From assembly GCA_964588955.1 (NCBI GenBank), contig CAZPQJ010000002.1:58078-122077 (forward strand): DNA of 64,000 nucleotides. Direction: 5' to 3'. The position numbers and the translations under genes were made by a program. This document shows positions 2,253 to 56,200 of the stretch, piece after piece. Under the pieces are notes generated by a model that saw nothing but the letters and a program-made list of their open reading frames with translations, ran no database searches and was not told the origin of the DNA. Positions within the stretch are counted from its first letter, which is position 1; the number at the start of each line of letters is the position of its first letter. The DNA comes from an uncultured Gammaproteobacteria bacterium (GTDB lineage: Bacteria > Patescibacteriota > Patescibacteriia > UBA9934 > CAMTUG01).

Positions 2253-2939
2253 ATGAAAATACTTATGAAATACTTCTTGTCCCTCTTGCTCACTGCATCG
2301 ATCCTCACGCCGTTTGCCGCGAAAGCCGATATTGCTCCAGACGTAGGGTTCCATCGGGTCACCCAATGTGCCTTTATTGATAACCTCGCCGATTACCCGG
2401 ACTATGACGTCTACGCGACCCACAATTGGCGGTTCGGTCCTTCACTAATTTTGTCACAAAATCTACAGACACTTTCTGACGGTTGCGAAGACAGTGGCAC
2501 ACCTTTTTTTGCCGTCAAAAAATCAGACCAGGCAAAAATTCAGCATCAAAATGATCCAGGCCAGGAACGCGGAGATATTTGGAACGAACTTGCGATCAAC
2601 AAACCTTATCTCCTTGAAGCCACGACCACGGGAGCGCGGACAGACATTTCCAAAGAGACAGTTAATGGTGATCTGCCGGACACGAATCCAGCCGTGTGGT
2701 TTGTGGCGGTTTACCACATTGATACGCTAACAGACGCAAATTTCAACGTGCGACTTGTACGTGAAACCCGTTATGATGCGGACGGACAGCTGGTAAGTAG
2801 CACGACAGTTTCAGGCGACGATGATGTTAACGAAAAGACTGCGGCTTCTTGGTTTGAAGATGAACGACTCCCCTGGATTGTCCTAATCGGCGTCGGCATT
2901 ATTCTTCTTGCCGTCGCGGTAAGATCGAAAAAGAAGTAA
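2253..2939 (+). CDS. Secreted protein with an N-terminal signal peptide and a C-terminal TM anchor plus KKK tail. Hypothetical.
   Basis: Signal peptide MKILMKYFLSLLLTASILTPFAAKA. C-terminal LPWIVLIGVGIILLAVAVRSKKK. Confidence 0.55.
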   Translation: MKILMKYFLSLLLTASILTPFAAKADIAPDVGFHRVTQCAFIDNLADYPDYDVYATHNWRFGPSLILSQNLQTLSDGCEDSGTPFFAVKKSDQAKIQHQNDPGQERGDIWNELAINKPYLLEATTTGARTDISKETVNGDLPDTNPAVWFVAVYHIDTLTDANFNVRLVRETRYDADGQLVSSTTVSGDDDVNEKTAASWFEDERLPWIVLIGVGIILLAVAVRSKKK

Positions 2940-2942
2940 TTT

Positions 2943-3671
2943 ATGAAACGCGCCATCCTTGCGAGCCTTGCTGTCGCTATCATCGCCACCGGAGTTGCCG
3001 GATTGTTGCTTATGCGTTCGCGACGTTCCAACGACATACCACCTGTTACAACAACTACCCAAGCAACGGAAGAAACCACGGGTATCATGGACTTGGTGTT
3101 GCGCTCACCCGTCATTATCCCGTCGTCAATCGAGGGCATGACGTTCGACATGAACGCAGACGGAGAGGACGACGTCCAAGTAGCCTTCTACAACCTCGAC
3201 GTTGACGGGAAAACCAGAAGCGGATTCCGCATCTACGATGTTGATGGGGGGCTACTTTACGAAAACCAATCCTCTGTTTGGAACGTTTTCCACACCCGAT
3301 GGTCAAATGCTTATCTCGTTGACCTCGGTCAAGATAGCAACCAGGAGCTGGTGCTCACAGGAACACAAGATGGGACAGGTGCCTATTATGACCAGGAAAT
3401 CTTTGCCTTTCTGAGTCATGTCGGTTTCCAAAAAATAGAAGCGGTGGCATCAAAAACAAACGAGGAACTCACTCAAACGTTTCTTGAACCCAACGAACGA
3501 TTAGGCAACGGCTGGATTGGGTCGGATGGACTAGGACATCGAGCCGTTTGCGCGGACGCATACTGCGCAGCTCGTCAATCGGCCCCAAACGCGGTCGGCG
3601 AAATCATCAACACGTACACCTTTGAAGGAATGCAGTATGTGGAAACGGGCTATCAGCGTGTAGACGATTAG
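2943..3671 (+). CDS. N-terminally membrane-anchored hypothetical protein (242 aa).
   Basis: TM helix ILASLAVAIIATGVAGLLL followed by a Thr-rich linker and a globular domain. Confidence 0.5.
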   Translation: MKRAILASLAVAIIATGVAGLLLMRSRRSNDIPPVTTTTQATEETTGIMDLVLRSPVIIPSSIEGMTFDMNADGEDDVQVAFYNLDVDGKTRSGFRIYDVDGGLLYENQSSVWNVFHTRWSNAYLVDLGQDSNQELVLTGTQDGTGAYYDQEIFAFLSHVGFQKIEAVASKTNEELTQTFLEPNERLGNGWIGSDGLGHRAVCADAYCAARQSAPNAVGEIINTYTFEGMQYVETGYQRVDD

Positions 3672-3686
3672 CCCAAGAGCCCTCTT

Positions 3687-3998
3687 ATGGTTTCAGAAGA
3701 GTTTGCTCTCCTCGCTCTCACCGTCGTTTTTGAGTTCTCGATCGCCCTTCTCATTCTTCGCAAAGAGCGCTGGCAAAAAATTGCACTGGTCGTTGTGGGA
3801 ATCAACATGATTACGCATCCAATTGTTTGGTGGCTACTCTACTATCATCAAACGAACTGGTTTCTAACCGAAGGAAGCGTGGCGCTTCTCGAAGGAACTA
3901 TTTTGGCAATTCTCTTTAAAAAACGAAGATGGCCGGCGCTTTGCGCAGGCATCCTCATGAACCTCGTGACGGCTACCATTGGCTACGTCTTTTTTTAA
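3687..3998 (+). CDS. Small integral membrane protein (103 aa).
   Basis: Three predicted TM helices. Confidence 0.5.
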   Translation: MVSEEFALLALTVVFEFSIALLILRKERWQKIALVVVGINMITHPIVWWLLYYHQTNWFLTEGSVALLEGTILAILFKKRRWPALCAGILMNLVTATIGYVFF

Positions 3999-4506: not shown

Positions 4507-5505
4507 ATGGACACCCTACGCAATACACTTAATGAAACGCAAGCTCGAGCGAAACTTGCTCAAGAAACCGCGCCGCGAAGGACGCTGTCGTTTTATCGCT
4601 ATGTGCCCTTGGAGGATCCGCGCGGTTTGCGAGATGAACTCTTCAAAGCCTGGAGCGAACTTGGGGTGCTCGGACGAGTTTATGTAGCGCATGAAGGAAT
4701 CAATGCGCAGATCAATCTTCCAGAACCAAACGTAGAAGCGTTCAAGAAACACCTTGATGGCATTGCCGCCTTTGCCAGCGTGCCATTCAAATTTGCCATT
4801 GAAGAACCAACACTTTCTTTTTGGAAGTTAATCATAAAAGTGCGCAAGCAAATCGTTGCCGACAACCTCCCTGCCGGCACGTATGATATTAGCAACGTTG
4901 GCAATCACCTGGACGCCAAGGCGTTTAACGAAGAGGTGGCCAACGGCGCCGTCGTCGTCGACATGCGTAACAAATACGAGAGCGACATTGGTAAATTTGA
5001 AACGGCGATCACACCACGTTCACAAACCTTCGGCAACGAACTCAAAGAAGTGGTCGAACTGTTAAAAGATAAAAAAGAAGAAAAGATCTTACTCTACTGC
5101 ACCGGTGGCATTCGTTGCGAAAAAGCCAGCGCCTTTTTGAAACACGAAGGGTTTTCTGACGTCAATCAACTCTACGGCGGAGTCATTCAGTACAAGCATG
5201 ATGTTGAGCGGGAAGGCTTAGAAAGCAAATTCAAAGGAAAGAACTTTGTCTTTGATGCCCGCATGGCCGAAGCGGTCACGAAAGACGTTCTTGGCAAATG
5301 CTACACCTGCAAAGCTCCAGCCGACGCGTACGACAACTGCAAAAGCGACTTGTGCCACGCCTTGTTCATTCAGTGCGACACCTGCCGCGAACAGACGCTT
5401 GGCACCTGTTCAGCCGCCTGCCGAAAGATCGCCGCACTCCCCGAAGAGGAGCGGCGCATCATCCGCAAGAATCGTAAAGCAACATTCAACGTCCTGACCT
5501 CCTAA
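4507..5505 (+). CDS. trhO: Rhodanese-domain tRNA uridine(34) hydroxylase (TrhO/YceA, UPF0176).
   Basis: N-terminal SFYRYVPLEDP, a rhodanese active-site loop LLYCTGGIRCEKAS, and a C-terminal Cys cluster. Confidence 0.8.
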   Translation: MDTLRNTLNETQARAKLAQETAPRRTLSFYRYVPLEDPRGLRDELFKAWSELGVLGRVYVAHEGINAQINLPEPNVEAFKKHLDGIAAFASVPFKFAIEEPTLSFWKLIIKVRKQIVADNLPAGTYDISNVGNHLDAKAFNEEVANGAVVVDMRNKYESDIGKFETAITPRSQTFGNELKEVVELLKDKKEEKILLYCTGGIRCEKASAFLKHEGFSDVNQLYGGVIQYKHDVEREGLESKFKGKNFVFDARMAEAVTKDVLGKCYTCKAPADAYDNCKSDLCHALFIQCDTCREQTLGTCSAACRKIAALPEEERRIIRKNRKATFNVLTS

Positions 5506-5508
5506 GCA

Positions 5509-5540
5509 AAACCTCCCCTTCGCGGGGTTGTTTTGTTTGT
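5509..5540 (+). terminator. Intrinsic terminator (cccc-ttcgc-gggg then ttgttttgtttgtg).
   Basis: Same family. It shares the downstream gtgctaggat motif with the copy at 7510. Confidence 0.5.
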
Positions 5541-5585
5541 GCTAGGATTATTTCGTATGATTTTACGTGGAACAACTATCGAACA

Positions 5586-13698: not shown

Positions 13699-14133
13699 AT
13701 GACGACATCACGTCTCAAACAATTGGCCGTCGCCGCCGCGCTTACGACCATGACCCTCGGGTTCGGATCAATCAGTGCCTTAACCGCCCATGCTGCCGAC
13801 GATAGCGGCGGATCAGACTCCACCACCTATTCCCCCATTACCGCCAATGATTTGTTGAACAGTAACTTTGGCAACGCCACCGGTCTCGGTTCCGGCGATT
13901 TGAACGACACCATTGGAGCCATTATCCGCGCCGCCCTTGGATTCTTGGGTGTCATCGCCGTGGTGATTATCTTGTTCGGAGGCTTCAAGTGGATGACGGC
14001 TGGAGGTAACGAAGAGAAGACCGGCGAAGCGCGCAAATTGATCATCGCCGGTATCATTGGTTTGGCGATTATCTTGTCCGCCTACGCCATCGCCACCTTC
14101 GTGATCACCCGCTTGGTTTCAGCGACAACCTAA
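13699..14133 (+). CDS. TrbC/VirB2-like pilin paralog 3.
   Basis: ALGFLGVIAVVIILFGGFKWMTAGGNEEKTGEARKL…. Confidence 0.7.
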   Translation: MTTSRLKQLAVAAALTTMTLGFGSISALTAHAADDSGGSDSTTYSPITANDLLNSNFGNATGLGSGDLNDTIGAIIRAALGFLGVIAVVIILFGGFKWMTAGGNEEKTGEARKLIIAGIIGLAIILSAYAIATFVITRLVSATT

Positions 14134-14204
14134 ACGATTCCCTTCCCCGAAGGTTTCTTCGGGGATGACGCGAGCGGAGTTTCCCTAAAATCCCTTCGCG
14201 CCAT

Positions 14205-14534
14205 ATGACCAACTTTCCTTCTAAGCTTCTCGCCCAAGGTATTAGTGTTGACGATACAGGTCTTGGCACCACCGCCAACGCCGCAAGCTACGGATCAGCC
14301 GGCAGCGTACCTGAACTGGTCGGAAGATTAATCGAAACCGCATTAGGATTTGTGGGTTTGGTGATGTTCCTGATTGTTCTCTACGCCGGTTATTTGTGGA
14401 TGACCGCTCAAGGAAACGAGGAACAGATCGTTAAAGCCAAAGGTATGATCGTCAACGCAGTGATTGGATTCATCATTATCACAGCTGCGTATGCCGTTAC
14501 CTTCTACGTGGTGGACACGATTTCCAAGTTATGA
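14205..14534 (+). CDS. TrbC/VirB2-like pilin paralog 4.
   Basis: ALGFVGLVMFLIVLYAGYLWMTAQGNEEQIVKAKGM… The gene ends in an ATGA overlap with paralog 5. Confidence 0.7.
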   Translation: MTNFPSKLLAQGISVDDTGLGTTANAASYGSAGSVPELVGRLIETALGFVGLVMFLIVLYAGYLWMTAQGNEEQIVKAKGMIVNAVIGFIIITAAYAVTFYVVDTISKL

Positions 14535-14944
14535 AAAAAACGTTCACTATCTTTTTGGCCGGATTTCTGCTTCTCGCGCCTATTACCACCTTTGCGGCTC
14601 CAGCTTATGGTAATGCCTTAAACTCCGCCGGCAACAGTGCGGGGCTGGCTGGCACAGATGGCGCTCCCACAACCCCTGTTTTAGATCTCGTGGGGAAGAT
14701 TCTCAACACAGCTCTTGGTCTACTCGGTGTCGTCCTTTTTGCCTTAACTGTTTACGCTGGATTCCTTTGGATGACCGCCCAGGGCAACGAAGAACAGGTG
14801 GTCAAAGCCAAAGGCATGTTGCGTAATGCCATTGTTGGCCTTATCATTGTTCTCGCGGCGTACTCCATTGCCAGCTTTGTTACCACACAAGTAAGCAAAT
14901 CTGCCGGACTCACAACCACCGTGCCGACAACCACCGCCCCCTAA
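14531..14944 (+). CDS. TrbC/VirB2-like pilin paralog 5.
   Basis: ALGLLGVVLFALTVYAGFLWMTAQGNEEQVVKAKGM… ~39 nt are near-identical to paralog 6. Confidence 0.7.
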   Translation: MKKTFTIFLAGFLLLAPITTFAAPAYGNALNSAGNSAGLAGTDGAPTTPVLDLVGKILNTALGLLGVVLFALTVYAGFLWMTAQGNEEQVVKAKGMLRNAIVGLIIVLAAYSIASFVTTQVSKSAGLTTTVPTTTAP

Positions 14945-14974
14945 TCTTACATTCAATAAAGAAACGTAATCACT

Positions 14975-15337
14975 ATGATGAAATATCTCATCGTCCCCGT
15001 CCTTCTGCTCATGCCGTACGCTGCCGGAGCCGCCACGCTCGATTTGAATAACGCCCTTACCAACGTTGGTGGTAACGCCTACGGAACCTCTACCCCAACC
15101 GATCTGCTCACGATCATCGGAACGATCATCAACGTCGCCCTCGGATTCCTCGGTGTTATTTTCTTGCTTCTCACCATTTACGCCGGATTCCTTTGGATGA
15201 CTGCCCAGGGCAACGAAGAACAAACTGCCAAAGCTAAAGGCATTTTGACCACCGCCATTGTTGGTTTGGTCATCACCCTCGCCGCCTACTCCATCGCCGC
15301 GTTTGTGGTGAACCAAGTGACCACCGCCACGCGCTAG
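14975..15337 (+). CDS. TrbC/VirB2-like pilin paralog 6.
   Basis: ALGFLGVIFLLLTIYAGFLWMTAQGNEEQTAKAKGI…. Confidence 0.7.
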   Translation: MMKYLIVPVLLLMPYAAGAATLDLNNALTNVGGNAYGTSTPTDLLTIIGTIINVALGFLGVIFLLLTIYAGFLWMTAQGNEEQTAKAKGILTTAIVGLVITLAAYSIAAFVVNQVTTATR

Positions 15338-15477
15338 TATACGTGGATCTTTGAAAAACTGATGGATTTTCGTTGAATGGGCTGTTGAGCTCGCGAGACG
15401 TATGGAAAGATACGTCGAGCGAGTCAACGGGTGCCCATGAGACGAAAAGACGCAGTTTTACAGAGATCCAAAAAGCA

Positions 15478-15517
15478 GAAGACCCCCGGACGCCGTACGC
15501 GTCTGGGGGTTTTCTTG
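15478..15517. terminator. Bidirectional hairpin terminator (acccccggacgccgtacgcgtctgggggtt).
   Basis: GC stem flanked by T and A runs. It lies between the pilin array and the convergent GC-rich gene. Confidence 0.45.
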
Positions 15518-15553
15518 AGTGAGCGTGGATGAGTGATCCGCGCTCTGGGGTCG

Positions 15554-16534
15554 TCAACGGAAGTCGCTGTCCATCAGCCAGGCTTCCACCCGGCCGTTGT
15601 AGGCGTTGTATCCGTAGACGTGGCTGCCCACGAACCGCCAAGTGCTCGCGCCGTCCATGCGGACGAACTTGAGCACCGTGAAGCTTCCGATCGCCTCAGG
15701 GACGACGAACTTGGCGTCACGAGTGCCGATGAGCGCGGAGACGTGGGCGCGGCCACCCGTGTCCGGGTGACGGATCCACACCCCCTTGAACTTGCCGCGG
15801 ATGCGGGCGTTCGTCGGGAGTCGATCTAGTCCAGCCGACACCTGGATGATCTCCGGCTGGAGATCATCCCCTGCGCCCGGTGAGGAGCACATGGGGAGGG
15901 ACTCTCCACCCACCATCACCGCGTAGGCGGTGAAAGGGGCTGCCGCCATCTCCTCCCGCCTCGCGCTCGGTGCGCCGTTGTGCGGCGACGGCTGGTCGTT
16001 GTGCAGGACGGCAATCAAGCTATCCCGCATCACGAACATGCCGTCGTAGCTCCCAACCTCGGCGTTGCCACCCTGCGCGAACTGCCCGCACGGATCGAAA
16101 TCCGTCTGGAACGTGGGCAACTCCTTCTTCGCCGTCGGCTGGGTGTCCGGCTCCGGGGCGGGGCGGTTGACCACCACCTTGGACTGAACCACCGGCGGGG
16201 ACGCAATGGCCACCGACCGGGGATCCGGCGGCGGGGGCAACCGCTCTGCCTGTGCCACCACGCTGGGCGGCACGGGCGACCAGCCGACCTCCTCCACCAC
16301 CGGCTCCGGCGGAGGTTGCTCAGCAACCGCGGCGACCGGTTCCGAAGGCGTCCCCTGCCCAAGGCACTTGATCCGCCGCTCTTCCGCGGCCTGACAGGCC
16401 GCGGGGTCGGTCGACCCGGGCTCTTCTTCACAGATCGACAGAGCCGATCCGATTGCGAGCCAGTCGCACTCCGTCTCAGTCGAGACGGGAGTGGACGCGA
16501 AGGCGAGGGACACCAGCGTGATGAACAGAAACAT
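15554..16534 (-). CDS. Secreted Pro-rich protein with an unknown C-terminal domain (GC-rich island gene 1). Start taken at MFLFITLVSLAFA.
   Basis: Signal peptide, a PPPEP linker and a globular C-terminal domain. Local GC ~65%. Third-position GC bias in this frame. Confidence 0.5.
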   Translation of the reverse strand: MFLFITLVSLAFASTPVSTETECDWLAIGSALSICEEEPGSTDPAACQAAEERRIKCLGQGTPSEPVAAVAEQPPPEPVVEEVGWSPVPPSVVAQAERLPPPPDPRSVAIASPPVVQSKVVVNRPAPEPDTQPTAKKELPTFQTDFDPCGQFAQGGNAEVGSYDGMFVMRDSLIAVLHNDQPSPHNGAPSARREEMAAAPFTAYAVMVGGESLPMCSSPGAGDDLQPEIIQVSAGLDRLPTNARIRGKFKGVWIRHPDTGGRAHVSALIGTRDAKFVVPEAIGSFTVLKFVRMDGASTWRFVGSHVYGYNAYNGRVEAWLMDSDFR

Positions 16535-16774
16535 CGAAGACTCCGGTGGCGCAATGCGCCGGTGAAATGAACTCTTTTGCCGCTTTTCTAGCCTTTCCAG
16601 GCCTTTAGCGGACCAATAAAAATAGCACATTTTGGCGATTTTGTCAATGGTATTGGATGGGAGAGAAAGCAGGAGAAAACAGGATAAAGTTGGATAAAAT
16701 GGGAGAAGAATGCCATGAAGTTTTCTTTTTCTCCTATTTTCTCCAACTTTTTCTCTTCTCTCCCGAAACCGGTT

Positions 16775-16810
16775 GACAAAAAGCCATTTTTCTGCTATAT
16801 TTCTCAGTTC
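16775..16810 (+). promoter_or_regulatory. Sigma70-like promoter: TTGACA, a 17-nt spacer (aaaagccatttttctgc), then TATATT.
   Basis: Consensus -35 and near-consensus -10 read directly. Located upstream of the 16955 gene. Confidence 0.4.
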
Positions 16811-16954
16811 CTCATCTTGCGCAATCCTGCGTCAGGTGAGGCCACATTGCTGTTTCACAACTGAAAAAGCTTGCCTCAAACGCAAGCCACTCTCGTGGAA
16901 CAAAAAAGAAACCAAACTCAAACACCGCGCGCAAGCGCGGATGGAGATGCCGAC

Positions 16955-18112
16955 ATGGCAATCCTCAACTTCGCCAAAAAAACGGCGATCAAGACCATTC
17001 AACAGAAGATCATCAACGGGGTGATCGTTCTCGTGGCTGGGAGTGGTGTGGCCGTGAGCCGTACCGAGCTCGGTACGAGAGTCCTCGTGGTAATGGCCGA
17101 ATTCCTGCGCGATAATCCGCTGGTTCTCGCGATCCTGCGGGAAGTGGTGGAGAGCGAGGGTCCGCAGGCCATCGACGTGATGGTCGATGAACTGCTGAGT
17201 CAGCGCAACATCACGGGAGAAGCCCGCGATGCCTTCATCGACGCTGCCGACGACATCGGCGAAGCACTAGGGAAGCGGGGCGCAGACGCCCTCGCCCCCG
17301 AGAATCTCGACGCCTACATCCTGGCCGCGCGGGCACGTCTGGCAGCGGACACCCGCCGCCGGACAGCCATCGTCGCCCAATCCACCCTCATCCAGCCGGC
17401 GGCCATCGCCGGCATCACGGGAGCTCCCATGCCCACTGGACTAGCCGGCGAAGCGCATGCGCTCGCCGTGTTCTCGACCACGCTCAGCGACAGCGGTCGC
17501 CGCCTGCTCGAGGCGTGGTTCACACCGATCGACACCGCCATCACCACGGACACCCGCGGAGAAGTCCCCGGTGCCCGAGTGAAGCTCCGTCGCATGTACC
17601 TCGCGGTGCAAGCCGACGAGGCAGGCATGCGGACGGAGTTCGAAAACGCAGTCCGCTTGTGGGGCCTCACCACGCAGGCGATCAACTACCTGCACGCGCA
17701 AGCCAAGCTGCGGGTACCCGAAGACCGGGCGGGAGACATCGCCGCAGATGCCACCGACGCCGCCCTGCCGACCAACACGATCATCACGATCGCCGAGGTG
17801 GGTGGAGCGGTGCTGAGCGGTGGGTTCCTGCTCTGGGTGTGTGGCTGGACGATCATCATGATCGGCCTGTTCGGCACCGGCGGAATCCTGTTCGTGATCG
17901 GGGTCGTTCGCTTCATCCAGAAGCAGACGGTCTACACCCCGGTTCTCCTCGTCGCCGGCGTGGCGATGATCCTCGCGGGACTCGTTCCCATGGGGTTCGT
18001 CGGAGCTGCCCTGGAGACGGTGGAGGAGCCGTTCGTGCTGGCGAAGAACGCCATCATCGCCCGCATCAAGCAGATCCAGACCCGTGTCGCTCCCCCGAGC
18101 GGCACTCCCTGA
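16955..18112 (+). CDS. Membrane protein with a large soluble N-terminal domain and C-terminal TM helices (GC-rich island gene 2).
   Basis: Start MAILNFAKK. C-terminal helices GGFLLWVCGWTIIMIGLFGTGGILFVIGVV and VLLVAGVAMILAGLV. Confidence 0.5.
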   Translation: MAILNFAKKTAIKTIQQKIINGVIVLVAGSGVAVSRTELGTRVLVVMAEFLRDNPLVLAILREVVESEGPQAIDVMVDELLSQRNITGEARDAFIDAADDIGEALGKRGADALAPENLDAYILAARARLAADTRRRTAIVAQSTLIQPAAIAGITGAPMPTGLAGEAHALAVFSTTLSDSGRRLLEAWFTPIDTAITTDTRGEVPGARVKLRRMYLAVQADEAGMRTEFENAVRLWGLTTQAINYLHAQAKLRVPEDRAGDIAADATDAALPTNTIITIAEVGGAVLSGGFLLWVCGWTIIMIGLFGTGGILFVIGVVRFIQKQTVYTPVLLVAGVAMILAGLVPMGFVGAALETVEEPFVLAKNAIIARIKQIQTRVAPPSGTP

Positions 18113-18156
18113 AAAACCTACGGGGGGTTGCGCAAGCGACCCCCAAGGAGAATTCG

Positions 18157-19308
18157 ATGTTCAAGTTCTTCGCAACCATGACCAACGGGAAGCGGGCGCT
18201 GATCGCCGGGAGTCTGTTGACTCTCGGCGCACTCCTCCTCGCCTTCGCCCTTGGCGTGCTCGGGGCGGCCCCGGTGGCCGCCATCTACGCGGTGATCGCC
18301 TTCGCCATCAGCGCCTTCCTGTTCGCAACCATCGGCAACTGGAACGCCGAGTGGGGGGCACGGGCGAGCGCCACGGCCTGCATCTTCGGGGTGGTGTTCT
18401 CCATCGCCGCCTTCGGGATCGTCCTCTTCCACGGGGTCAACGAAGCCCAGCGGGAGGCGGATCTGAAGGTGGTCGACGACGCCACCCGCGCGGAGGTGTC
18501 CGAGAACGACGTCGGGGCGGCGCGCAAGCGTCTCCTCGGCGGCGACAACGCTGAAGTCACCCTCAAGACCGCGACCGACATCGCCCGAGCCGACAAGGCG
18601 CTCGCCCTGGCCACGGAGATCAACAACTCCGAGACCATGGACGAGAACGCCAAGAAGGTCCAGGAAGCCATCGACGCCCGCAACCTCGCCGACGCCGAAG
18701 CCGCGGCCAAGGGGTGGACCGGGATGGTGAAGGACTACTTCGCCACCAAGGGGCGGGAATACCAGCACCTCGGATGGCGAAGCAGCCACGCAGACACCGT
18801 CACCAAGGTGATCTACTGGTTCCCCACCCTCGTCTTCGTGGGTGTCGCCGGTCTGATGACCCTCTACGCCGCGGCCCAGTTCGGCATCAAGGGGGTCATC
18901 AAGGAGCCGCCGGTCGGAGCCCACTGGCTGCACTGGGTGAAGTTCTACACCGACAAGGTGCTCTTCGCCCCGTCCACCAAGGTGGCCTTGGGAGCGTTCG
19001 CGCTCCTGTGGTTCCCTCTCTGGTGGGCGGACATGCTCCTCGAGCCCTACGATCCGACCCCGCCGCACAGCGAGCAGGACGAACGGCACGAGACCTCGGC
19101 CGAGAAGGCGAGGGCGGCGCGGGAGAAGATTGCCGAGCGTCGTCAGACGACGCGTAGCAACAAGGACGCTGGCCAGCGCAAGCAGGCCAACGCCCACGAC
19201 AAGAAGATCGAGGGATCGGTCGAGTCCGCGACCATCCCCGCCGGGCGCTACGCGTTCGGCCGTGACGAGGACGGCAACGCCCACACCCTGGTCGTCGCCG
19301 ACAACTAG
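18157..19308 (+). CDS. Membrane protein with coiled-coil segments (GC-rich island gene 3).
   Basis: AAGGAG lies 6 nt upstream of the ATG, the only clear SD in the window. Two N-terminal TM helices. Charged C-terminal tail. Confidence 0.55.
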   Translation: MFKFFATMTNGKRALIAGSLLTLGALLLAFALGVLGAAPVAAIYAVIAFAISAFLFATIGNWNAEWGARASATACIFGVVFSIAAFGIVLFHGVNEAQREADLKVVDDATRAEVSENDVGAARKRLLGGDNAEVTLKTATDIARADKALALATEINNSETMDENAKKVQEAIDARNLADAEAAAKGWTGMVKDYFATKGREYQHLGWRSSHADTVTKVIYWFPTLVFVGVAGLMTLYAAAQFGIKGVIKEPPVGAHWLHWVKFYTDKVLFAPSTKVALGAFALLWFPLWWADMLLEPYDPTPPHSEQDERHETSAEKARAAREKIAERRQTTRSNKDAGQRKQANAHDKKIEGSVESATIPAGRYAFGRDEDGNAHTLVVADN

Positions 19309-19373
19309 AGGCCCGCGCGGAACTCGCGAGCCTCCCTTCCGGAAGTGTGGTACTCCCACACCTCCGCTCACCA

Positions 19374-19410
19374 AGAAGCCCCCGGCGCAATCTGCACCGG
19401 GGGCTTTTCC
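19374..19410 (+). terminator. Intrinsic terminator (aagcccccggcgcaatctgcaccgggggctttt).
   Basis: GC stem plus T-run immediately after island gene 3. Confidence 0.5.
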
Positions 19411-19445
19411 ATTTTCTCCTTCTTTCTCTTTTCTCCTATTTTTTC

Positions 19446-20462
19446 TTACTTCATCTCCTTCTTAAACCAATCCACCCAATGAATATCTTTTGGGTCCACG
19501 CCGCCGAGCTCAGCCATTTTGGTAGTGATCAGGGCTCCGCGTTGCACCAGTTCAAATGCTTGTTGCAACGGCGTCTTTCCTGAAATAGTTAGCCGCAACG
19601 TTTTAGCCCCATTTTTCTTTACAACTGTTTCTGTCAGCCCATAGCGTTTTTGTACGCGGGGGTGATACAAATCCGACTCGATAAAAATAAACGTTAGTCC
19701 GTTGACTATCGCTTTGGGAAACGTCAATCCTTCCATCAAATGATGATTCATTTCTGGAATGGCAAATCGCACAGCGAAATGCTTAGCACTCTCGTTGAGT
19801 TGATTGGTAAAGACGTGCGCCGCGCCTTCCAGGTGTTCGCTGGAGATCATCACGCACCCACGTTGAAAAAGTTTTTTGGCAATACTTCCCGCCTCACGCT
19901 TCCAGGCAGACACACCACTTTGCAAATGTTTGGCGACCTCGGCAACTTCTTTGTCGCCTACCCTTACCGCGCCTATTGCCGCCAAAACCGCCAGCGGAGC
20001 CATAGCCATAAATCCTGTTCCGTACCGCGGTTGTGGAGCCAAATCTCCTGGATCAAACACGTAGGCCGGTCCCTTGTCGCGTCGCGCCCACTCGGCGAGC
20101 GGTCCGCCGTGCGTCAACACAAACATCTTCAATCCTTTTGCTTTGGCTTGTTTGTAGGCACCAAGCACTTCTTCCGTAGTTCCAGAAAAGCTGGAGAGGA
20201 TCACGAGCGACGATTTGGTCGCCGAAGCGGGCAAATGATACCCATTCACCACTTCAATCGGCACAGTCAAACGATCCGCTAAGGCCGATTGAATCACATG
20301 TACTCCCAGCGCCGAGCCCCCCATGGCCATCATCACTACACGATCAATCGACCGATAGCTTGCCGGTAACTTCATCCGCTTGGCCTCTCGATAGGCCAAC
20401 ACAAGTTGTTCATCCAATCTGCTCAACGTGTCAAAAAGCGTCTGCATAAGGTATTTGATCAT
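19446..20462 (-). CDS. Bifunctional phosphoglucose/phosphomannose isomerase (SIS-domain, archaeal-type PGI/PMI).
   Basis: Two SIS-like segments (…VVMMAMGGSALG…ILSSFSGTTEE…) and ~330 aa length. Confidence 0.75.
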   Translation of the reverse strand: MIKYLMQTLFDTLSRLDEQLVLAYREAKRMKLPASYRSIDRVVMMAMGGSALGVHVIQSALADRLTVPIEVVNGYHLPASATKSSLVILSSFSGTTEEVLGAYKQAKAKGLKMFVLTHGGPLAEWARRDKGPAYVFDPGDLAPQPRYGTGFMAMAPLAVLAAIGAVRVGDKEVAEVAKHLQSGVSAWKREAGSIAKKLFQRGCVMISSEHLEGAAHVFTNQLNESAKHFAVRFAIPEMNHHLMEGLTFPKAIVNGLTFIFIESDLYHPRVQKRYGLTETVVKKNGAKTLRLTISGKTPLQQAFELVQRGALITTKMAELGGVDPKDIHWVDWFKKEMK

Positions 20463-21546: not shown

Positions 21547-21560
21547 AGAATGAAGAAAAT

Positions 21561-21673
21561 CGAAATACTAAATCCGAAGTACCAAACACATTCAAAATCT
21601 CAAAGAAAAATTCACAAACTGTTTTTACCTTTTCCGATTAGGATTTTCCGATTGTTTCGGATTTAGTATTTCG
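21561..21673. repeat. Inverted-repeat intergenic element, copy A. An 18-bp perfect inverted repeat cgaaatactaaatccgaa / ttcggatttagtatttcg flanks ~75 bp.
   Basis: Read directly. A 21-nt core ctaaatccgaagtaccaaaca recurs reverse-complemented at 44118-44138. Confidence 0.6.
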
Positions 21674-21684
21674 TATTTCGTGTT

Positions 21685-21951
21685 TTATAAATCCGGAAAC
21701 AGTTGAACGCCTTTCTCGTCGGTAATAATAATAGCCAACGTTGGGCAAGACTGCGCCGCCATAATGATGTTCTCCTTTTCCTCTTCGCTTACCTCCACCA
21801 CCCGTTCATAGGTACGTTCGGTTGGCTCCGTACCATGATCGAACACAACAGCCTTGTTTTCGTCGTTCAACTGGAACGTTTCTGGAGCGATCGTTACGCA
21901 CGAAGCCGCCCCAATGCACAAGTCTGGATCCACTTTGATTGTCAATTTCAT
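21685..21951 (-). CDS. Ferredoxin (single [3Fe/4Fe-4S] cluster type).
   Basis: DPDLCIGAASCVTIAP…AAQSCPTLAI, with cysteine spacing of a small ferredoxin. Confidence 0.8.
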   Translation of the reverse strand: MKLTIKVDPDLCIGAASCVTIAPETFQLNDENKAVVFDHGTEPTERTYERVVEVSEEEKENIIMAAQSCPTLAIIITDEKGVQLFPDL

Positions 21952-24435: not shown

Positions 24436-25530
24436 TCAGTTGGTCGAAACCGGGGCAGGCCTTCCTGTGAAGCGGACAATCGAGCCGTCATCCTTCAAGA
24501 GGATCGCGGAGCCGAAGACGGGGACGAGCTGATTGTGTTCGATCGATCCGTGCGGTTCGATCCGCACGCTGGCTCGCCAGGTGAGACGATTCTGATCCGA
24601 GACCTCGCGAAGAAGACGTGCCTCGTCCACTCCGACGCAGATCTGCGCGGTGGTGATCCGGAAGACCGGAGGGGAAGCCGCCTCCATCTCGATGACGACG
24701 TCCTTGGGGGCGACAGGCGGAGCGAGAACTTCGTTCCAGAGCGTCTCGTCCTCGAAAAGACGCGTGAAGACGTGCACCTCTTCCTCGCGGGGAGTGAGGA
24801 TGCGTTCCTCGTGCGTTCCGCCGAGATTCTCGCAACGAGGTTCGGGAAACCGGTCTCGTTCCTCCTCGCACTTTTCCCGTTCGTCGAAGGACTTTCCACG
24901 ACACTCGGACTGATATTGATCTCGATCACTGCAGTCCCACGGACCATTTTCGACCGTCTGCGTTCGTCCGTAGCCTTGGTCGCGCTGGAGTGCCAGCTGG
25001 CATGCGAGCGGAGGATTGGTCACCGGGATGCGCATCTGCACAGAAGGAAAACACCCCGTATCGGCCGAGTACAGGGGCAGTTTGACCCCCTGCACCGCGA
25101 AGGTACTCGAACGCGAGAGATCCTGCCCGTCCCTGGCACTCATCATCTGGAGCCAGAGGTTGTGGTAGTCGTGCCGACTGGCCTCGACTGCGCGCTCGCG
25201 GTCGGCGAGATAGGCGGCGCGGCGTGCTTTGTACGCATGGGTGGTCTCGAACTCGCTCTTGGGGTACTCGCCCGTCGTGCCTTCCTTGGCAGTGGCCAAG
25301 TTTTTTTCAGCGATTTCAACCGCCACCTTGGCGGCCTGGACACCCGGATCCGCGAGAACAGAAATCTCGGCCTCCCCGAGCCGGTGCAACACCGCCTCGA
25401 AGTCGTCTTCCGCGTACGGCTGACGACAGGGATCGGCGTCCGTTCCGAGATCCTCCGGAACCACAGGGTGGGCGCAGGCGAGAACGAGCAGACCAATAAG
25501 CCCGGAAAGAAGAACCGTACACTTGGACAT
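24436..25530 (-). CDS. Secreted or lipoprotein-like hypothetical protein in a GC-rich islet. Start taken at MSKCTVLLSGLIGLLVLACAHP.
   Basis: Signal peptide with a LAC lipobox-like motif. Local GC ~63%. A hairpin terminator sits at 24398-24417. Confidence 0.5.
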   Translation of the reverse strand: MSKCTVLLSGLIGLLVLACAHPVVPEDLGTDADPCRQPYAEDDFEAVLHRLGEAEISVLADPGVQAAKVAVEIAEKNLATAKEGTTGEYPKSEFETTHAYKARRAAYLADRERAVEASRHDYHNLWLQMMSARDGQDLSRSSTFAVQGVKLPLYSADTGCFPSVQMRIPVTNPPLACQLALQRDQGYGRTQTVENGPWDCSDRDQYQSECRGKSFDEREKCEEERDRFPEPRCENLGGTHEERILTPREEEVHVFTRLFEDETLWNEVLAPPVAPKDVVIEMEAASPPVFRITTAQICVGVDEARLLREVSDQNRLTWRASVRIEPHGSIEHNQLVPVFGSAILLKDDGSIVRFTGRPAPVSTN

Positions 25531-25599: not shown

Positions 25600-25674
<75 letters not shown>

Positions 25675-37682: not shown

Positions 37683-37935
37683 CTTTAGTACAATAATTTC
37701 TTTTCCGTTGCTAAAAGCGATTCGGTTCTATCAAAAGACGCTTTCGCCGGATCACGGTCCCCTTCGGATGCTCCACCCAGGAGGTTTTTGCCGATTTTAC
37801 CCGACCTGTTCTGAGTACGGGCACCAGGCAATCCAGACACACGGGGTAATAAAAGGCCTCGCCCTTAGTATTTGGAGGGTCTTGCGGTGCCACCCCTGGG
37901 CAAAAGGCGGTCTCGACCCTATCCCCAACAAATAA
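37675..37935 (+). CDS. yidD: Membrane protein insertion efficiency factor YidD.
   Basis: [15 protein letters not shown]…[15 protein letters not shown]…[15 protein letters not shown]. Confidence 0.85.
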
Positions 37936-37985
37936 CAAAACCGCCCTTGGTCTTCGGTGGCTCGGGCGGTTTTGGTTTGTTTTGG
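37934..37985. terminator. Bidirectional terminator (aaaaccgccc-ttggtcttcggtggctc-gggcggtttt).
   Basis: 9-bp GC stem with flanking A and T runs. No yidC follows yidD. Confidence 0.55.
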
Positions 37986-37988
37986 TTC

Positions 37989-38087
37989 TTAAGCGCAGGA
38001 GCAGTTCTCCATCGCTTCCTGGCACGTTTCACATTTGGCTTCGCACTGGCACTCGGCGTTGAGGCAGATACCGCAGGTCTCTTCCAT
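37989..38087 (-). CDS. Candidate 32-aa cysteine-rich peptide (MEETCGICLNAECQCEAKCETCQEAMENCSCA).
   Basis: Uninterrupted small ORF with 7 Cys in 32 aa, 61 nt downstream of recA on the same strand. No SD. Not in the ORF track. Confidence 0.25.
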   Translation of the reverse strand: MEETCGICLNAECQCEAKCETCQEAMENCSCA

Positions 38088-38148
38088 AAAGAGGAAAGAT
38101 TAATTGTACGCAAGAGTATAGCAGATTATTCTTGTTTTGTCAATGATT

Positions 38149-52243: not shown

Positions 52244-53221
52244 ATGCGTAAACTCATGGCTGCTGTCGCGGCACTCTGCGCGACGCTACTGGGCGATCAA
52301 GTTCCCTCTCACAGTGGGACTGCGACGAACGTGTCGCAGTGTCCGGTAGGGATGGTTCTTGTGCGCGACACGGAAGACACGTTCTGTATTCACGCGCACG
52401 AACCGTCTGTTCGTGGAAACTTCGGAAGCGATTTGCAGGGAGTGGCGGGTGCGATTCCTCCGAAGGGGGTCGTGATCACGTCTTCGCCTGGGGTCGTGCC
52501 CACCGTTGGCTATTCCTTCAGTCAGGCGCGAGCGTTCTGCACCATGCAGGGGGAGGGCTGGCACCTGGCCACGCTAAAGGAGTGGTTGAAAGCAGCCGGA
52601 CAGATTGATGAAACGGCAGCGACAGCCAACTGCAACATCAGCAACAAGTCCCGTTCGCTGATGCCGACAGGCAGCTTCCCTCTGTGCAAGAGTTCTTGGG
52701 GGGCAGTCGACATGGTCGGCAATGCGTGGGAGTGGGCAGATCCTCGAGCGAACGTCAGTACGCAAGCTTTCATGAAGATGGCCGAAGGGTCACACTTCGT
52801 GATTCGCACGGCCGCTACTGGCGTGGTTCAGATGGACACCTTCACCTTCGCGCATCTGAAGCGTGATATCGTCGGTTTCGCCAACGTCCATGCTGGACTC
52901 GATCCGGACGGGACTTACGTCTTGTCTACGGAAGGTGCGGAGTGGGATTGGCGCAACCGTCCGATTGGATACCTCGCCTACCGCGACGGAATCGGTTCAG
53001 AGGGGAATCCGGCAAATGACCTGCCGGTCGAAGTCGTCCGCGATCCGAACATTCCTCGACGTGCCTATCTGCGAATCGCGGGTGATCTGGATGGGCAACC
53101 CATCACCGCCAAAGTCGGTGGTGCCCACTACCTGGGCATGCCGAAAGCCGTGTCTTACGGACATACGGCGAATTTCAAGGGTACGATCCTTGGTCGCTGT
53201 GTAGCCCCGCCCATCAACTAG
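52244..53221 (+). CDS. Secreted FGE-sulfatase (SUMF1/formylglycine-generating enzyme) domain protein.
   Basis: YSFSQARAFC…GWHLATLKEW…GAVDMVGNAWEWA matches FGE-domain motifs. Signal peptide. GC-rich (~60%). Confidence 0.65.
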   Translation: MRKLMAAVAALCATLLGDQVPSHSGTATNVSQCPVGMVLVRDTEDTFCIHAHEPSVRGNFGSDLQGVAGAIPPKGVVITSSPGVVPTVGYSFSQARAFCTMQGEGWHLATLKEWLKAAGQIDETAATANCNISNKSRSLMPTGSFPLCKSSWGAVDMVGNAWEWADPRANVSTQAFMKMAEGSHFVIRTAATGVVQMDTFTFAHLKRDIVGFANVHAGLDPDGTYVLSTEGAEWDWRNRPIGYLAYRDGIGSEGNPANDLPVEVVRDPNIPRRAYLRIAGDLDGQPITAKVGGAHYLGMPKAVSYGHTANFKGTILGRCVAPPIN

Positions 53222-53285: not shown

Positions 53286-56200
53286 TTACGGGGTTGGGGC
53301 TGTGTCCGCGCTTGTGTCTGGCGCGGGTGGAACTGAATCGGTCGGTGCGGCATCCGTCGGAGTGTCAGAGGAAGAACTGACGGGGTCCGCTGATTCTGTT
53401 GGTTCAGTTGATGTCGTTGTGTCCGCTGTGTCTGTTGTTGGCTCAGTGGTGGGTGTGTCAGAAGGGGGTGCTGTGTCCGCCGACGTCTCTGACAGTGCCG
53501 GTTCTTCCGTCGACGTCTCTGACGGTGTGACTTCCGGAGTCGTGGTCGGCACCAATGCTTCGGACGGCTCGTAGCCGTTACGGTAAGCAATCACCAACCA
53601 ATCAAAGCTAACGTCTGAAGATCCACCAGATTCCTGCACCGAGAATCCATTATTATCTTTTTCACTCACGTACAACGGATCCGTCGGACCGTTGGCAGTA
53701 ACGAGTACGCGGATTTCTGCCACCGGCGAAATGATGTCGTTGAAGTTGGGATCGATATCTTCAAAGTCGATCTGTGCTTCGCCATTGTTGAGCTCGCTCG
53801 TTCCAGAAAGGGTGATGGTTGTTTGTGGAGACATGGTGGCAGTAACTGTTGCCGTGCCGCCTTGAAGGGTGTCGACTTCGGCAGTGTAAGTCTTTGTTGT
53901 AATAAATGTACCATCTTCCTCCACGCTCCAGTTGTCGGCAATACCAACCAATCGGCCAATGTTAATGATTTGATGACCGTTCAAGTAGAGGTCGCCGTCG
54001 AGGCTCAGTGAAGAAAGACTTCCACTGTGCGTGTCGGAAGCTGTGTTGACTGAGGCGGAGTCATTCACAATTTGGCCGGCACCATAGCGCACAAAGACTT
54101 GGATGGTTCCTTGGCCAGACGTAAGACTGCTGAGGGCTGTAGCGACGATCGCTTCCCCGCTGTTTGCTTTGCGGGCAAATCCAGGAGTGCTCGATGGGGT
54201 GAGGGCATCCCCAGGAGCGATTGGGCCGTTTTCATCGTTCACATGCAAAGGAACACGTCCATTCAAGGCCACAGGCTGTGGATGCTCGGCTTGCTCCTTA
54301 AGATCAGATCCAATCACCTGGATTGGCGAGGTGGAGATGATGCCGAAGGTTTTGCTTCCAGAAGCAGAGCTTGCCAAGGTAAGGATAGGTAGTGTTTTTT
54401 GGGAAGTGGCTCGCAAGATTTCTCCCGTAAACGCGTTACTTTCATTGGCTGTGTAGGTGATCGTTTGGTCGGAAAGGGCTACCACATCTCCAGCCGCAAC
54501 GGAGCCGTCTGTTTCATACCACTCGGCAAAGTCAGCGGGGGCACCGCTACAAGCTACAATGTCGCGTGTTGCATCTGTGGCGGCGTCGACGTTGGCACCG
54601 GAGTGACACAAACCGTTGGTGGTTGCCGTACCGTTTAAGTTAACGGATGTGATACCTGTTGATGCGACGGCGAACTTTCCACTGTTAACCGTAATGGCCG
54701 TGTCCCATCCGTTGCCAATAACAATACCCTGTTCTGTTCCAGCGCCAGGGGTGGTGATTGTACCGATGTTTAGTCCGATCATTGTGCCAGCGGCCGGACC
54801 AGTTGTTGGCGCTGTGATATTAATTCCGGTTTCTTGTCCACCAGTAGTAATTGCGCCAGTGTCTGGGAAAGCAATGTTTACCCCGTTTGCCTGTACACTG
54901 CCGGTTGTTTGAGTGATGGCGGGAATTGTAGCAAGATAGCCGTTCCAGGTAATCGCTCCAGCAGCGGTGTTCTGCGTGATTGCTGCACCGCTGAGCGCGC
55001 TGTATGCCGTAAGTCCTTCTGTGCCGCCGCCTGAACGTGTTCCGCCTAGCGTGGTAACGACTGCTCCCTTGATGAATTGGTTATTGGCCCCTGTCAGGTT
55101 CGTCGACATGTCTAAGTTAAGACCAGTGAGGCCGCCGGTTTGCGTGGTTGCCCCTCCAAAGGCCGTATTCAGAAGAGTGCCGCTCGTTGTTCTGGCGGCA
55201 AGGCTGAGGAGCGTGTTAGACGTGACGTTAGTGCCCGTGAGTGTGAGTGCTGTGGCGTTTGTTGATGGGGTAATGTTGAGGGCGCCGTTGCCGTCGAAAT
55301 AGAAGCCATTACCGGAAATGCCAATGTCCCAACCTGTACCGAGCGAGATCCCCGTAGAGTTAATGGTTCCTCCACCGGCGTCGGTAAGGGCGCCGATAGA
55401 AATGCCGTTTACAAAATCCGTTCCGCTTGTCGTGGCCGTAAAGGCGTCCACGGCCAGAACGGAATAGGTGTCACTACCGTTACCTGTATACGATGGCACA
55501 AGATGCAAAAGATTATTCGTACTATTGGTTGCACCAAAGGTGAGAGAAAGGCCGTCAACGTTTGCCGTGGTCGTGGCTTGACCAGTGTTGGTGATAGAGA
55601 GCATGTCGACAGTTGGAGCATCGGCGGCAGCGATATTGACGCTGTCAGAATAATCACCAACAACGGAGAAAAGATTGTCCCAGCGTGTTCCCGTTGCGCC
55701 AATATCGGCCGATCCCGCGCCAAGCTGCGGCAAGAAGTCATCATCGGTGCCAAGCTGAACCGTGCCAGAGGAATCGAGGGTGAAGGTGCCTGTGGAGACA
55801 ATGGAGTTATCTAAAAAGTTGGTCGTCCCTGAAGCACCGGCGCTAAACCCAATATCGCTGAAGACTTCGCCGTCACCTTCAACGCGGAAGATGTCGTTAT
55901 TTGCTCCTCCAAAGTCGTCTTGAAGGAGGATGAGATCAGCCGCAGCGGCTGTCTCGCCGGTGTCGATAAATAAGGCACGACCAGAGTCGTCAGTAAAGTT
56001 GCCGGTAGTAATTTTAAGCGCTTGGCCAGTGGTAAGCGAAGGCGCGGCGATATCGACGGTATTCGCCGTTGTTGCAAAACTGGCAGTTCCACTGATGAGG
56101 GATCCATTACCAGCGTGTGTTATAAGTAACACGTTGTCTGTGTTTGTTGCGCTGGTATTTCTGGCAAAAATTGCATCACCAAGACCGGCTTGAGTTACTC

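Follow-up and report, generated by a model that had tools for sequence, protein, structure and literature searches.

Within the 64,000-nucleotide (nt) stretch of contig CAZPQJ010000002.1 analysed here (the window), the segment at 15520-19405, between an array of pilin genes and pgi, differs from its surroundings in guanine-plus-cytosine (GC) content. It holds three genes, which we call A, B and C (primes, i.e., A', B', C', B'' and C'', mark their counterparts in relatives). In agreement with a preliminary description of this DNA, A lies on the minus strand beside the pilin array and encodes a putatively secreted protein, B and C form a plus-strand operon of predicted membrane proteins, and the segment has its own terminators, one after C and one between A and the pilin operon. 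The features of the locus, by position in the window, are listed below.

15476-15518 (about), both strands: GC-rich terminator hairpin with T-runs on both strands, read from the sequence and common to the pilin operon (plus) and A (minus)
15554-16534, minus strand: gene A, 326 amino acids, predicted secreted orphan; GC at third codon positions (GC3) 0.83; hydrophobic N-terminus at residues 1-19
16619-16647, minus strand: promoter of A, TTGACA, 17 nt, TG-extended TATTTT
16648-16772, no strand assigned: imperfect, AT-rich 125-nt palindrome; one arm purine and one pyrimidine, with a periodicity of roughly 10 nt; holds copy 1 of a 14-mer
16773-16801, plus strand: B-C promoter, TTGACA, 17 nt, TG-extended TATATT, 11/12 consensus positions
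16802-16954, plus strand: 5' leader of B, ~150 nt, with two small hairpins
16955-18112, plus strand: gene B, 385 amino acids, predicted membrane protein; GC3 0.81; transmembrane segments within residues 275-356
18121-18150, plus strand: B-C intergenic hairpin GGGGGGTTGCGCAAGCGACCCCC, followed by the AAGGAG ribosome-binding site of C
18157-19308, plus strand: gene C, 383 amino acids, predicted membrane protein; GC3 0.91; transmembrane segments mapped
19378-19408, plus strand: intrinsic terminator of B-C, GCCCCCGG...CCGGGGGC then TTTT
19406-19445, no strand assigned: CT-rich tract with copy 2 of the 14-mer (19429-19442), resembling the pyrimidine arm of the palindrome and ending at the pgi stop codon

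The GC content of the segment was 62-73%, compared with ~50% elsewhere in the window, confirming the compositional contrast that had been described. In 1-kb sub-windows the interval from 15 to 19 kb gave values of 0.595, 0.574, 0.655 and 0.660, against 0.449-0.573 over the rest, while 200-nt sub-windows resolved two GC-rich blocks (15500-16499 at 0.62-0.735 and 17000-19399 at 0.60-0.70) with an AT-rich trough between them (16500-16899, 0.385-0.46). The rise started just past the terminator hairpin at 15476-15518, and GC had dropped to ~0.46 by 19400. Among the 54 ORFs (open reading frames) of the window, only A, B and C exceeded a GC3 of 0.72, the median being 0.55 (standard deviation 0.07). 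As had also been pointed out, ORFs of at least 80 residues were present in several frames of the segment; those of A, B and C showed the coding signature GC3>GC1>GC2. The A-B intergenic DNA, at 0.385-0.46 GC, was no more GC-rich than the other non-ORF DNA of the window (48%). Because the non-coding DNA embedded in the segment is thus host-like or more AT-rich, the GC enrichment follows the coding sequences.

Native genes could acquire such third positions by extreme codon optimization, if they were very highly expressed (encoding, e.g., an abundant surface layer). Near-perfect promoters with an extended -10 element, the AAGGAG present only at C and the long leader of B would all fit such genes, as would the mildly raised C-ending codons of EF-P, SSB, RecA and the pilins, which we took as a highly expressed set. 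This set, however, shares the preference of native genes in general for AAA (0.67-0.72), GAA and CAA, with CGG being avoided (0.03), while A, B and C use AAG (0.95), GAG (0.69), CAG (0.85) and CGG (0.34). Their choices for Lys, Glu, Gln and Arg are thus opposite to the native ones, and we conclude that the GC3 excess is not native codon optimization. In addition, both G and C are raised at the third positions of the trio, and the ratios of nonsynonymous to synonymous substitution rates (dN/dS) of B and C, 0.65-0.73, are atypical of abundant proteins. Taken together, these observations make an explanation by expression level highly improbable.

The promoter of A places its transcription start downstream of an ATG at 16630, hence we take translation of A to start at 16534, behind a GGAG on the minus strand (16541-16544), which in turn exposes a hydrophobic, signal-peptide-like N-terminus. 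The predicted signal peptide is followed by a Cys-containing helical segment, a Pro-rich linker and a C-terminal domain of ~180 amino acids, which may be beta-rich, its secondary structure being taken from a low-confidence model only. B would comprise a soluble, Ala-rich N-terminal region of ~270 amino acids and then C-terminal transmembrane helices, and C would start with a bundle of three transmembrane helices and end in a charged tail, with a helical part and then two more transmembrane helices in between. C was the only gene of the window with AAGGAG 6 nt ahead of a real start codon, in line with what had been reported of this Shine-Dalgarno sequence. The sole other strong ribosome-binding site in the window was the AGGAGG of a gene at 52244-53221 (plus strand; GC3 0.66), which encodes a secreted protein with an FGE-sulfatase-like domain.

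We compared the locus with that of several relatives. L001 is a 5-kb contig from another sample, which reads A' (cut)-B'-C'-pgi and whose pgi is 93% identical to that of the window at the nt level; L068, from the same sample as L001, carries a pilin array leading into the tail of A'. L030 is a groundwater contig with a pgi protein 66% identical to the window's, L002 a 2.9-kb contig with B'' and C'' behind AT-rich DNA, and L003 an independent assembly of the window's own strain. All pgi relatives that we found belong to the Patescibacteria, or candidate phyla radiation (CPR). Together, L001 and L068 displayed the same gene order as the window, with the trio between the pilin array and pgi. In L030 the order was oxidoreductase, pgi, a membrane protein, a B-like protein, a secreted A-like protein, six pilins and SBP, the trio region being 3.6 kb long at 62-70% GC and including an AT-rich promoter gap. 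The trio was therefore found at the same site in both lineages with readable flanks (L001/L068 and L030), and every known homologue (on three contigs) occurred in this same chromosomal frame, none of them on a GC-rich contig. The segment was thus not absent from relatives, although its absence would be expected of a recent insertion.

The sharpness of the GC steps, and one Logan contig that breaks inside C, might raise the suspicion of an assembly chimera or contamination, i.e., of a high-GC fragment misjoined into a CPR contig. L003, however, was 100% identical to the window over 14001-18820 (pilins, A, B and part of C), and two other samples gave the same gene order, including the C-pgi junction. 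The GC steps, moreover, coincide with gene boundaries, and promoters of native type lie inside the segment. Since independent assemblies agree, we regard a chimera as ruled out for practical purposes.

At the protein level, A was colinear with A' of L030 (4223-5176), with 24-30% identity and a pairwise E value of 0.027, the two sharing the signal peptide, Cys positions, Pro linker and a DPC motif. B had homologues in P0003 (83% identity) and in B'' of L002 (25-29%, by BLASTP and global alignment), and the profile of the B family matched B' of L030 with an hhalign probability of 88% (E = 3e-6). C had homologues in P0005 (56% identity), P0006 (51%) and C'' of L002 (48-51%), and showed no detectable similarity to C' of L030. 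By hydropathy, A and A' of L030 both had a signal-peptide-like N-terminus, and the transmembrane blocks of B and C were conserved.

The control DNA was conserved as well. The B-C promoter is kept in L001, L002 and L030, such that the promoter including its spacer (TTGACAAAA..CATTTTT.TGCTAYATT) is common to all four lineages, and the pattern TTGACAAAA-N11-TGCTAYWTT precedes B in four lineages and A in two, a promoter of the same design facing A' in L030. The B leader shares ATTGCTGTTTCACAA with L002 (a search of Rfam returned no family for it), and the B-C terminator is kept in L001 and L002. A third promoter of this type lies elsewhere in the window (38115-38143, minus strand), where it drives an unrelated small gene. 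We thus consider the control DNA native, given that the promoter is kept across lineages and that its type recurs at this unrelated gene. The small gene itself (region 37925-38143, minus strand; promoter TTGACAAAA-N11-TGCTATACT) encodes a 32-residue peptide with eight cysteines (MEETCGICLNAECQCEAKCETCQEAMENCSCA, 37989-38087), has a terminator downstream, adjoins recA and is near rnpA and dnaA.

The preliminary description had proposed that the segment was a recently acquired module, possibly from a high-GC donor, and that an exact motif repeated on either side of B-C was a duplicated target or attachment sequence. The motif is real: the 14-mer TTTTCTCCTATTTT occurs at 16727-16740 and 19429-19442, 6-8 nt away from where it had been placed. 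With 0.04 copies expected, and P = 0.002 when only the two local CT-rich tracts were shuffled, the pair is unlikely to be due to chance, and similarity around the copies reaches 33/40 nt. However, among the 66 fetched loci the 14-mer was found only in L003, the window strain's own contig, and thus it was absent from L001, L002 and L030, which bear trio genes. Copy 1, in addition, lies in the right arm of the 125-nt palindrome, which is real too, as the imperfect inverted repeat described for the divergent promoter region (arms of 28 nt, 82-86% complementary; a fold of -25.8 kcal/mol for 16648-16772, z = -4.9). This palindrome fills the gap between the back-to-back promoters in the window strain only: in L001 and L030 only 23-24 nt separate the -35 boxes, with no palindrome between them, which marks the palindrome as a strain-specific insertion or replacement. 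The absence of the 14-mer from trio-bearing relatives, and the position of copy 1 within a strain-specific palindrome, show that the 14-mer is not an attachment site, and that it belongs instead to strain-variable, AT-rich palindromic intergenic elements.

Several such elements were observed. Where the window has copy 2, L001 carries a palindrome of another sequence and 137 nt long (3706-3842, z = -7.3), and L030 has terminator hairpins only; L002 has two more (~50-145 and ~255-350), of yet other sequences, and a further one lies in the window at 21547-21690 (z = -4.5). These AT-rich intergenic palindromes of 125-140 nt all differ in sequence, and their presence at the same site varies between strains. 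Their arms are built of short periodic motifs, and their folding z-scores range from -4.5 to -7.3. In Rfam, the palindrome matched only microRNA-precursor hairpins, below threshold. The intergenic palindromes may represent hairpin elements that are mobile or expand by themselves, or else regulatory DNA.

Further observations bear on a recent horizontal island, whether from an actinobacterial host or from another high-GC donor. The strong GC and GC3 deviation, the exact 14-mer flanking B-C and the orphan status of all three genes are what one would expect of it. However, the segment consists of three ORFs only, with no integrase, transposase or relaxase according to Pfam, NCBIfam and PHROG, and the tRNAs of the window are at 25.6 and 49.6 kb, the former being the nearest. 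The trio, moreover, occupies the same site, without the motifs, in every relative found, including those with 93% pgi nt and 66% pgi protein identity, and thus the patchy presence expected of an island was not seen in the sampled relatives, thin as this sample is.

Donors were also sought by homology. A, B and C matched nothing in Pfam (E <= 1), NCBIfam, PHROGs or PADLOC, and neither did their L030 and L002 counterparts in Pfam, PHROGs or PADLOC, the PHROG and PADLOC scans giving just two chance-level PHROG matches (E 0.02-0.05). Among 5.8 billion protein clusters (word-indexed), A found itself, B one relative and C two, these relatives coming from just two short contigs, and an exhaustive phmmer (HMMER) search of A against 1.84 billion (1.84e9) representatives returned only A itself. 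In tblastn searches, neither phages nor plasmids matched A, B or C, and the trio and its relatives had no hit in 0.85 Mb from the other CPR loci fetched; profile-derived scans found no relative in IMG/VR (B and C families) or in the JGI metagenomes (C family). No match with E below 0.04 came from the PDB, whether by sequence or by profile, and AlphaFold2 models of A (predicted local distance difference test score, pLDDT, 43.6, from a single sequence) and C (pLDDT 45.8, from a three-sequence alignment) were too poor for a fold search. No homologue of the trio turned up in Actinobacteria, and our literature search found no description of such a locus. As these searches came back nearly empty, no actinobacterial or other donor, such as had been suggested, is in evidence. 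With promoters of native type in addition, we consider a recent island very improbable.

The neighbourhood of the segment allowed its origin to be placed in time. In L005 and L006, two distant CPR genomes with pgi ~40% identical, pgi and the pilin array are also ~3.3 kb apart (read at L005 1-7800 and L006 9953-18437), and the gap, of ordinary GC, is taken up by GT2 and PMT_2 enzymes (L006) or by two polytopic, uncharacterised membrane proteins (L005). Since other genes occupy the gap there, the trio is lineage-specific and arose or arrived before the window and L030 split. These findings would suit a single ancient import from an unsampled GC-rich source that is still ameliorating, with no active force on its GC, and so would the raised GC1 and GC2 of A, B and C and their Ala-, Gly- and Pro-rich proteins, as found in high-GC organisms.

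Such a relic would be expected to fade, however. Between the window and L030, the flanking genes had a synonymous divergence (dS) of 0.9-1.9, with 41-59% identity at four-fold sites, and the trio's proteins were 23-30% identical, compared with 67-75% for the flanking proteins. GC3 of the trio was nevertheless 0.83-0.91 in both lineages, and it was 0.79-0.88 in L001, 0.74-0.79 in L002 and 0.83-0.90 in L030, against 0.54-0.63 in flanking genes. With synonymous sites mostly turned over since the two lineages separated, a relic under no active force should have lost most of its GC excess: by a rough estimate, decay from an excess of at most 0.45 would leave at most ~0.18, compared with the 0.28-0.36 observed. 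The host-like composition of the embedded non-coding DNA and the lack of any donor-like homologue also weigh against an ancient import, which we judge unlikely. At four-fold sites, the transition-to-transversion ratio between the window and L001 was 39:39 in the trio and 14:4 in pgi (p = 0.038, a small sample), and the trio had more C<->G changes than pgi, a difference that was not significant; we take this shift as a weak sign of ongoing G/C retention. We infer that either a locus-specific force or repeated refilling maintains the GC-rich composition.

To characterize the divergence within the segment, we used the comparison between the window and L001, the one pair for which dN/dS was computed. 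The ratio rose from 0.085 in pgi and 0.16 in A to 0.65 in B and 0.73 in C, and in some 40-codon blocks dN was above dS. At the nt level, A was 93.5% identical and pgi 93%, with lower values for B together with the first half of C (87%) and for the tail of C (79%), and no alignment was obtained at 18742-19094. The latter corresponds to codons ~196-313 of C, which resemble the far more distant L002; replaced in L001 yet L002-like, they indicate exchange of an allele or segment in C. dS was mosaic along the locus and along pgi itself (0 to 0.58): in pgi (19446-20462, vs. L001 3842-4858), some 40-codon blocks had dS = 0 and others 0.4-0.6, a pattern in the sequences that suggests that strains recombine often throughout this region. 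B and C thus appear to behave as exposed proteins under diversifying or relaxed selection with recombination.

This mosaic dS also suits another possibility, that the site is a cassette refilled repeatedly from an external GC-rich pool (an unsampled mobile element, or other strains), its promoter and terminator flanks serving as recombination anchors. The replaced part of C, the lack of relationship between C and C' of L030, and a promoter that stayed conserved while the proteins diverged to 25-30% identity would each follow from such refilling. Yet all known homologues sit in the same chromosomal frame and none on a GC-rich contig, A and B keep colinear homology across lineages, and no pool is visible among the 5.8 billion protein clusters. 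Refilling is therefore an improbable explanation, if one to be kept in mind before the ancient import. As for a diversity-generating retroelement, no further copy of the segment's coding DNA that could serve as a template repeat is present in the 64-kb window.

Taken together, these results lead us to favour, as the probable though far from certain explanation, an inherited, hypervariable locus of envelope proteins with native promoters, whose coding GC is actively maintained. Under this hypothesis, two back-to-back consensus promoters of native type would drive A one way and the B-C operon the other. A would be exported by the Sec pathway via its signal peptide, with the Pro-rich linker holding the putative beta-rich domain away from the cell, and B and C would insert into the membrane. 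That these two genes diverge through relaxed or diversifying selection, and through segments swapped between alleles, is shown by the comparisons above. The signal-peptide and transmembrane features, together with the evolutionary rate, suggest that the trio is exposed at the surface and interacts with a partner or an enemy, such as the host cell surface or phage. The GC-rich composition would then be a locus-specific equilibrium kept by a GC-favouring process, the likeliest being either biased gene conversion that accompanies frequent recombination or selection acting on the coding sequence.

Several points weigh against this explanation. Vertical descent is inferred from few points, i.e., two or three lineages, none of them between 66% and 93% pgi identity. 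C at least may have been replaced, given its lack of similarity to C' of L030, and the trio did arrive or arise at some point, other genes filling the gap in distant CPR. Function is read from signal-peptide and transmembrane prediction, both AlphaFold models being unusable. Gene conversion should also raise the GC of the non-coding DNA inside the segment, and yet this DNA is AT-rich, which promoter constraint could explain. Lastly, we know of no bacterial GC3 gap of such size (0.55 vs. 0.85) that is attributed to gene conversion.

Other genes with unusual GC were observed in the window and among its relatives. The next strongest outlier of the window is an orphan, lipoprotein-like gene at 24436-25530 (minus strand; 61-64% GC, GC3 0.71), which has a signal peptide ending in LVLAC, matches nothing in Pfam and adjoins tRNA-Cys (25600-25674). 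In L006 (Parcubacteria GW2011_GWA2_47_26), two secreted orphans (2668-3726 and 4571-5542, both minus strand) have 72% GC and a GC3 of 0.89-0.90 in a genome of 47% GC; each lies behind AT-rich DNA, their signal peptides are similar (KK(N/K)LFLFVAV), and one carries MopE-type Cys motifs. A GC anomaly of this kind is thus present in a distant lineage of CPR as well. Immediately upstream of pgi, seven AT-rich CPR genomes carry a small gene with a GC3 of 0.63-0.88, against genome medians of 0.32-0.43. Two copies of this gene match NUDIX or NDP-hexose 2,3-dehydratase, showing that a GC3 excess that is gene-specific and conserved also occurs outside secreted orphans. The gene lies at the following positions.

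L010, 9031-9774: pgi-upstream GC3-rich gene
L020, 9196-9753: pgi-upstream GC3-rich gene
L022, 9195-9809: pgi-upstream GC3-rich gene
L025, 6243-6848: pgi-upstream GC3-rich gene
L039, 3727-4197: pgi-upstream GC3-rich gene
L045, 3931-4404: pgi-upstream GC3-rich gene
L058, 9269-9820: pgi-upstream GC3-rich gene

The window also encodes two adjacent, very large exported proteins (53286-58253 and 58259-61663, both minus strand) of 1655 and 1134 residues; the shorter one contains MopE-type metal-binding motifs, an fn3 domain and a CarboxypepD_reg-like domain, and the longer one has no Pfam match.

A bolder and quite doubtful proposal is that CPR have a locus-specific, GC-favouring process (hyper-recombination with biased repair, or a targeted mutagenic or repair activity), which makes selected genes diversify rapidly and keeps them for very long at a compositional equilibrium of their own. 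If so, the trio would be one instance of it, other candidates being the 72%-GC orphans of L006, the lipoprotein-like gene and the pgi-adjacent GC3-rich gene, and together they would represent a previously undescribed mode of gene-specific genome evolution. More immediately, atypical GC is routinely taken as a sign of recent horizontal transfer, which is wrong at this locus, and the trio is thus a warning against composition-based island calling in CPR genomes. Either three coding sequences are actively held at ~85-90% GC3 in a genome of 50% GC, or they are repeatedly refilled from a GC-rich pool. In both cases, the trio is a conserved, fast-evolving set of putative envelope proteins beside a pilin array, which have no relatives outside these lineages and are candidates for host contact or phage resistance.

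Compared with known systems, the locus resembles a classical genomic island (integrase-borne, tRNA-associated and bounded by direct repeats) in its deviant GC and codons, orphan cargo, sharp borders and short repeats around part of it. It differs from such an island in lacking an integrase, relaxase or tRNA, in its non-conserved repeat, its native-type promoters and its lack of a donor homologue, and in the presence of the trio at the same site in relatives whose flanks are near synonymous saturation. As for the palindromes, REP/BIME, ERIC, Correia and other elements similar to miniature inverted-repeat transposable elements (MITE-like) are small intergenic palindromic repeat elements, and the 125-nt palindrome is like them imperfect, intergenic, of 100-150 nt and strain-variable. 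Unlike them, the palindromes here each differ in sequence and form no repeated family, their arms consist of short periodic motifs, and we recognised no terminal repeats or target-site duplication.

Lassalle et al. (2015, PLoS Genetics) reportedly described GC-biased gene conversion in bacteria, with recombination linked to higher GC3 independently of expression and with effects of reportedly a few GC3 points across whole genomes. The gap at the trio differs in being ~30 points wide, confined to three coding sequences and sparing the embedded non-coding DNA. We know of no persistent GC3 excess of ~30 points at diversifying surface loci, with which the trio otherwise has much in common. The trio shares with such recombination-hot loci its conserved flanks and its exported or membrane products, as well as a raised dN/dS, alleles of mosaic structure and segments that have been swapped, and differs in that its proteins belong to no family. 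Examples of such loci are the host-interacting lipoprotein loci of Borrelia (PMC11389397) and 'hot' regions of realised recombination in pathogens (PMC4866539). Lastly, the immediate neighbour of the trio is an array of TrbC/VirB2-like type IV secretion system (T4SS) pilins of CPR, six genes matching PF18895, the other neighbours being housekeeping genes; A, B and C match neither this family nor any T4SS component, and no T4SS ATPase was found among the window ORFs scanned. The adjacency of trio and pilin array is nevertheless kept in three lineages, and the linkage of pgi to the pilins is kept even in distant CPR genomes.

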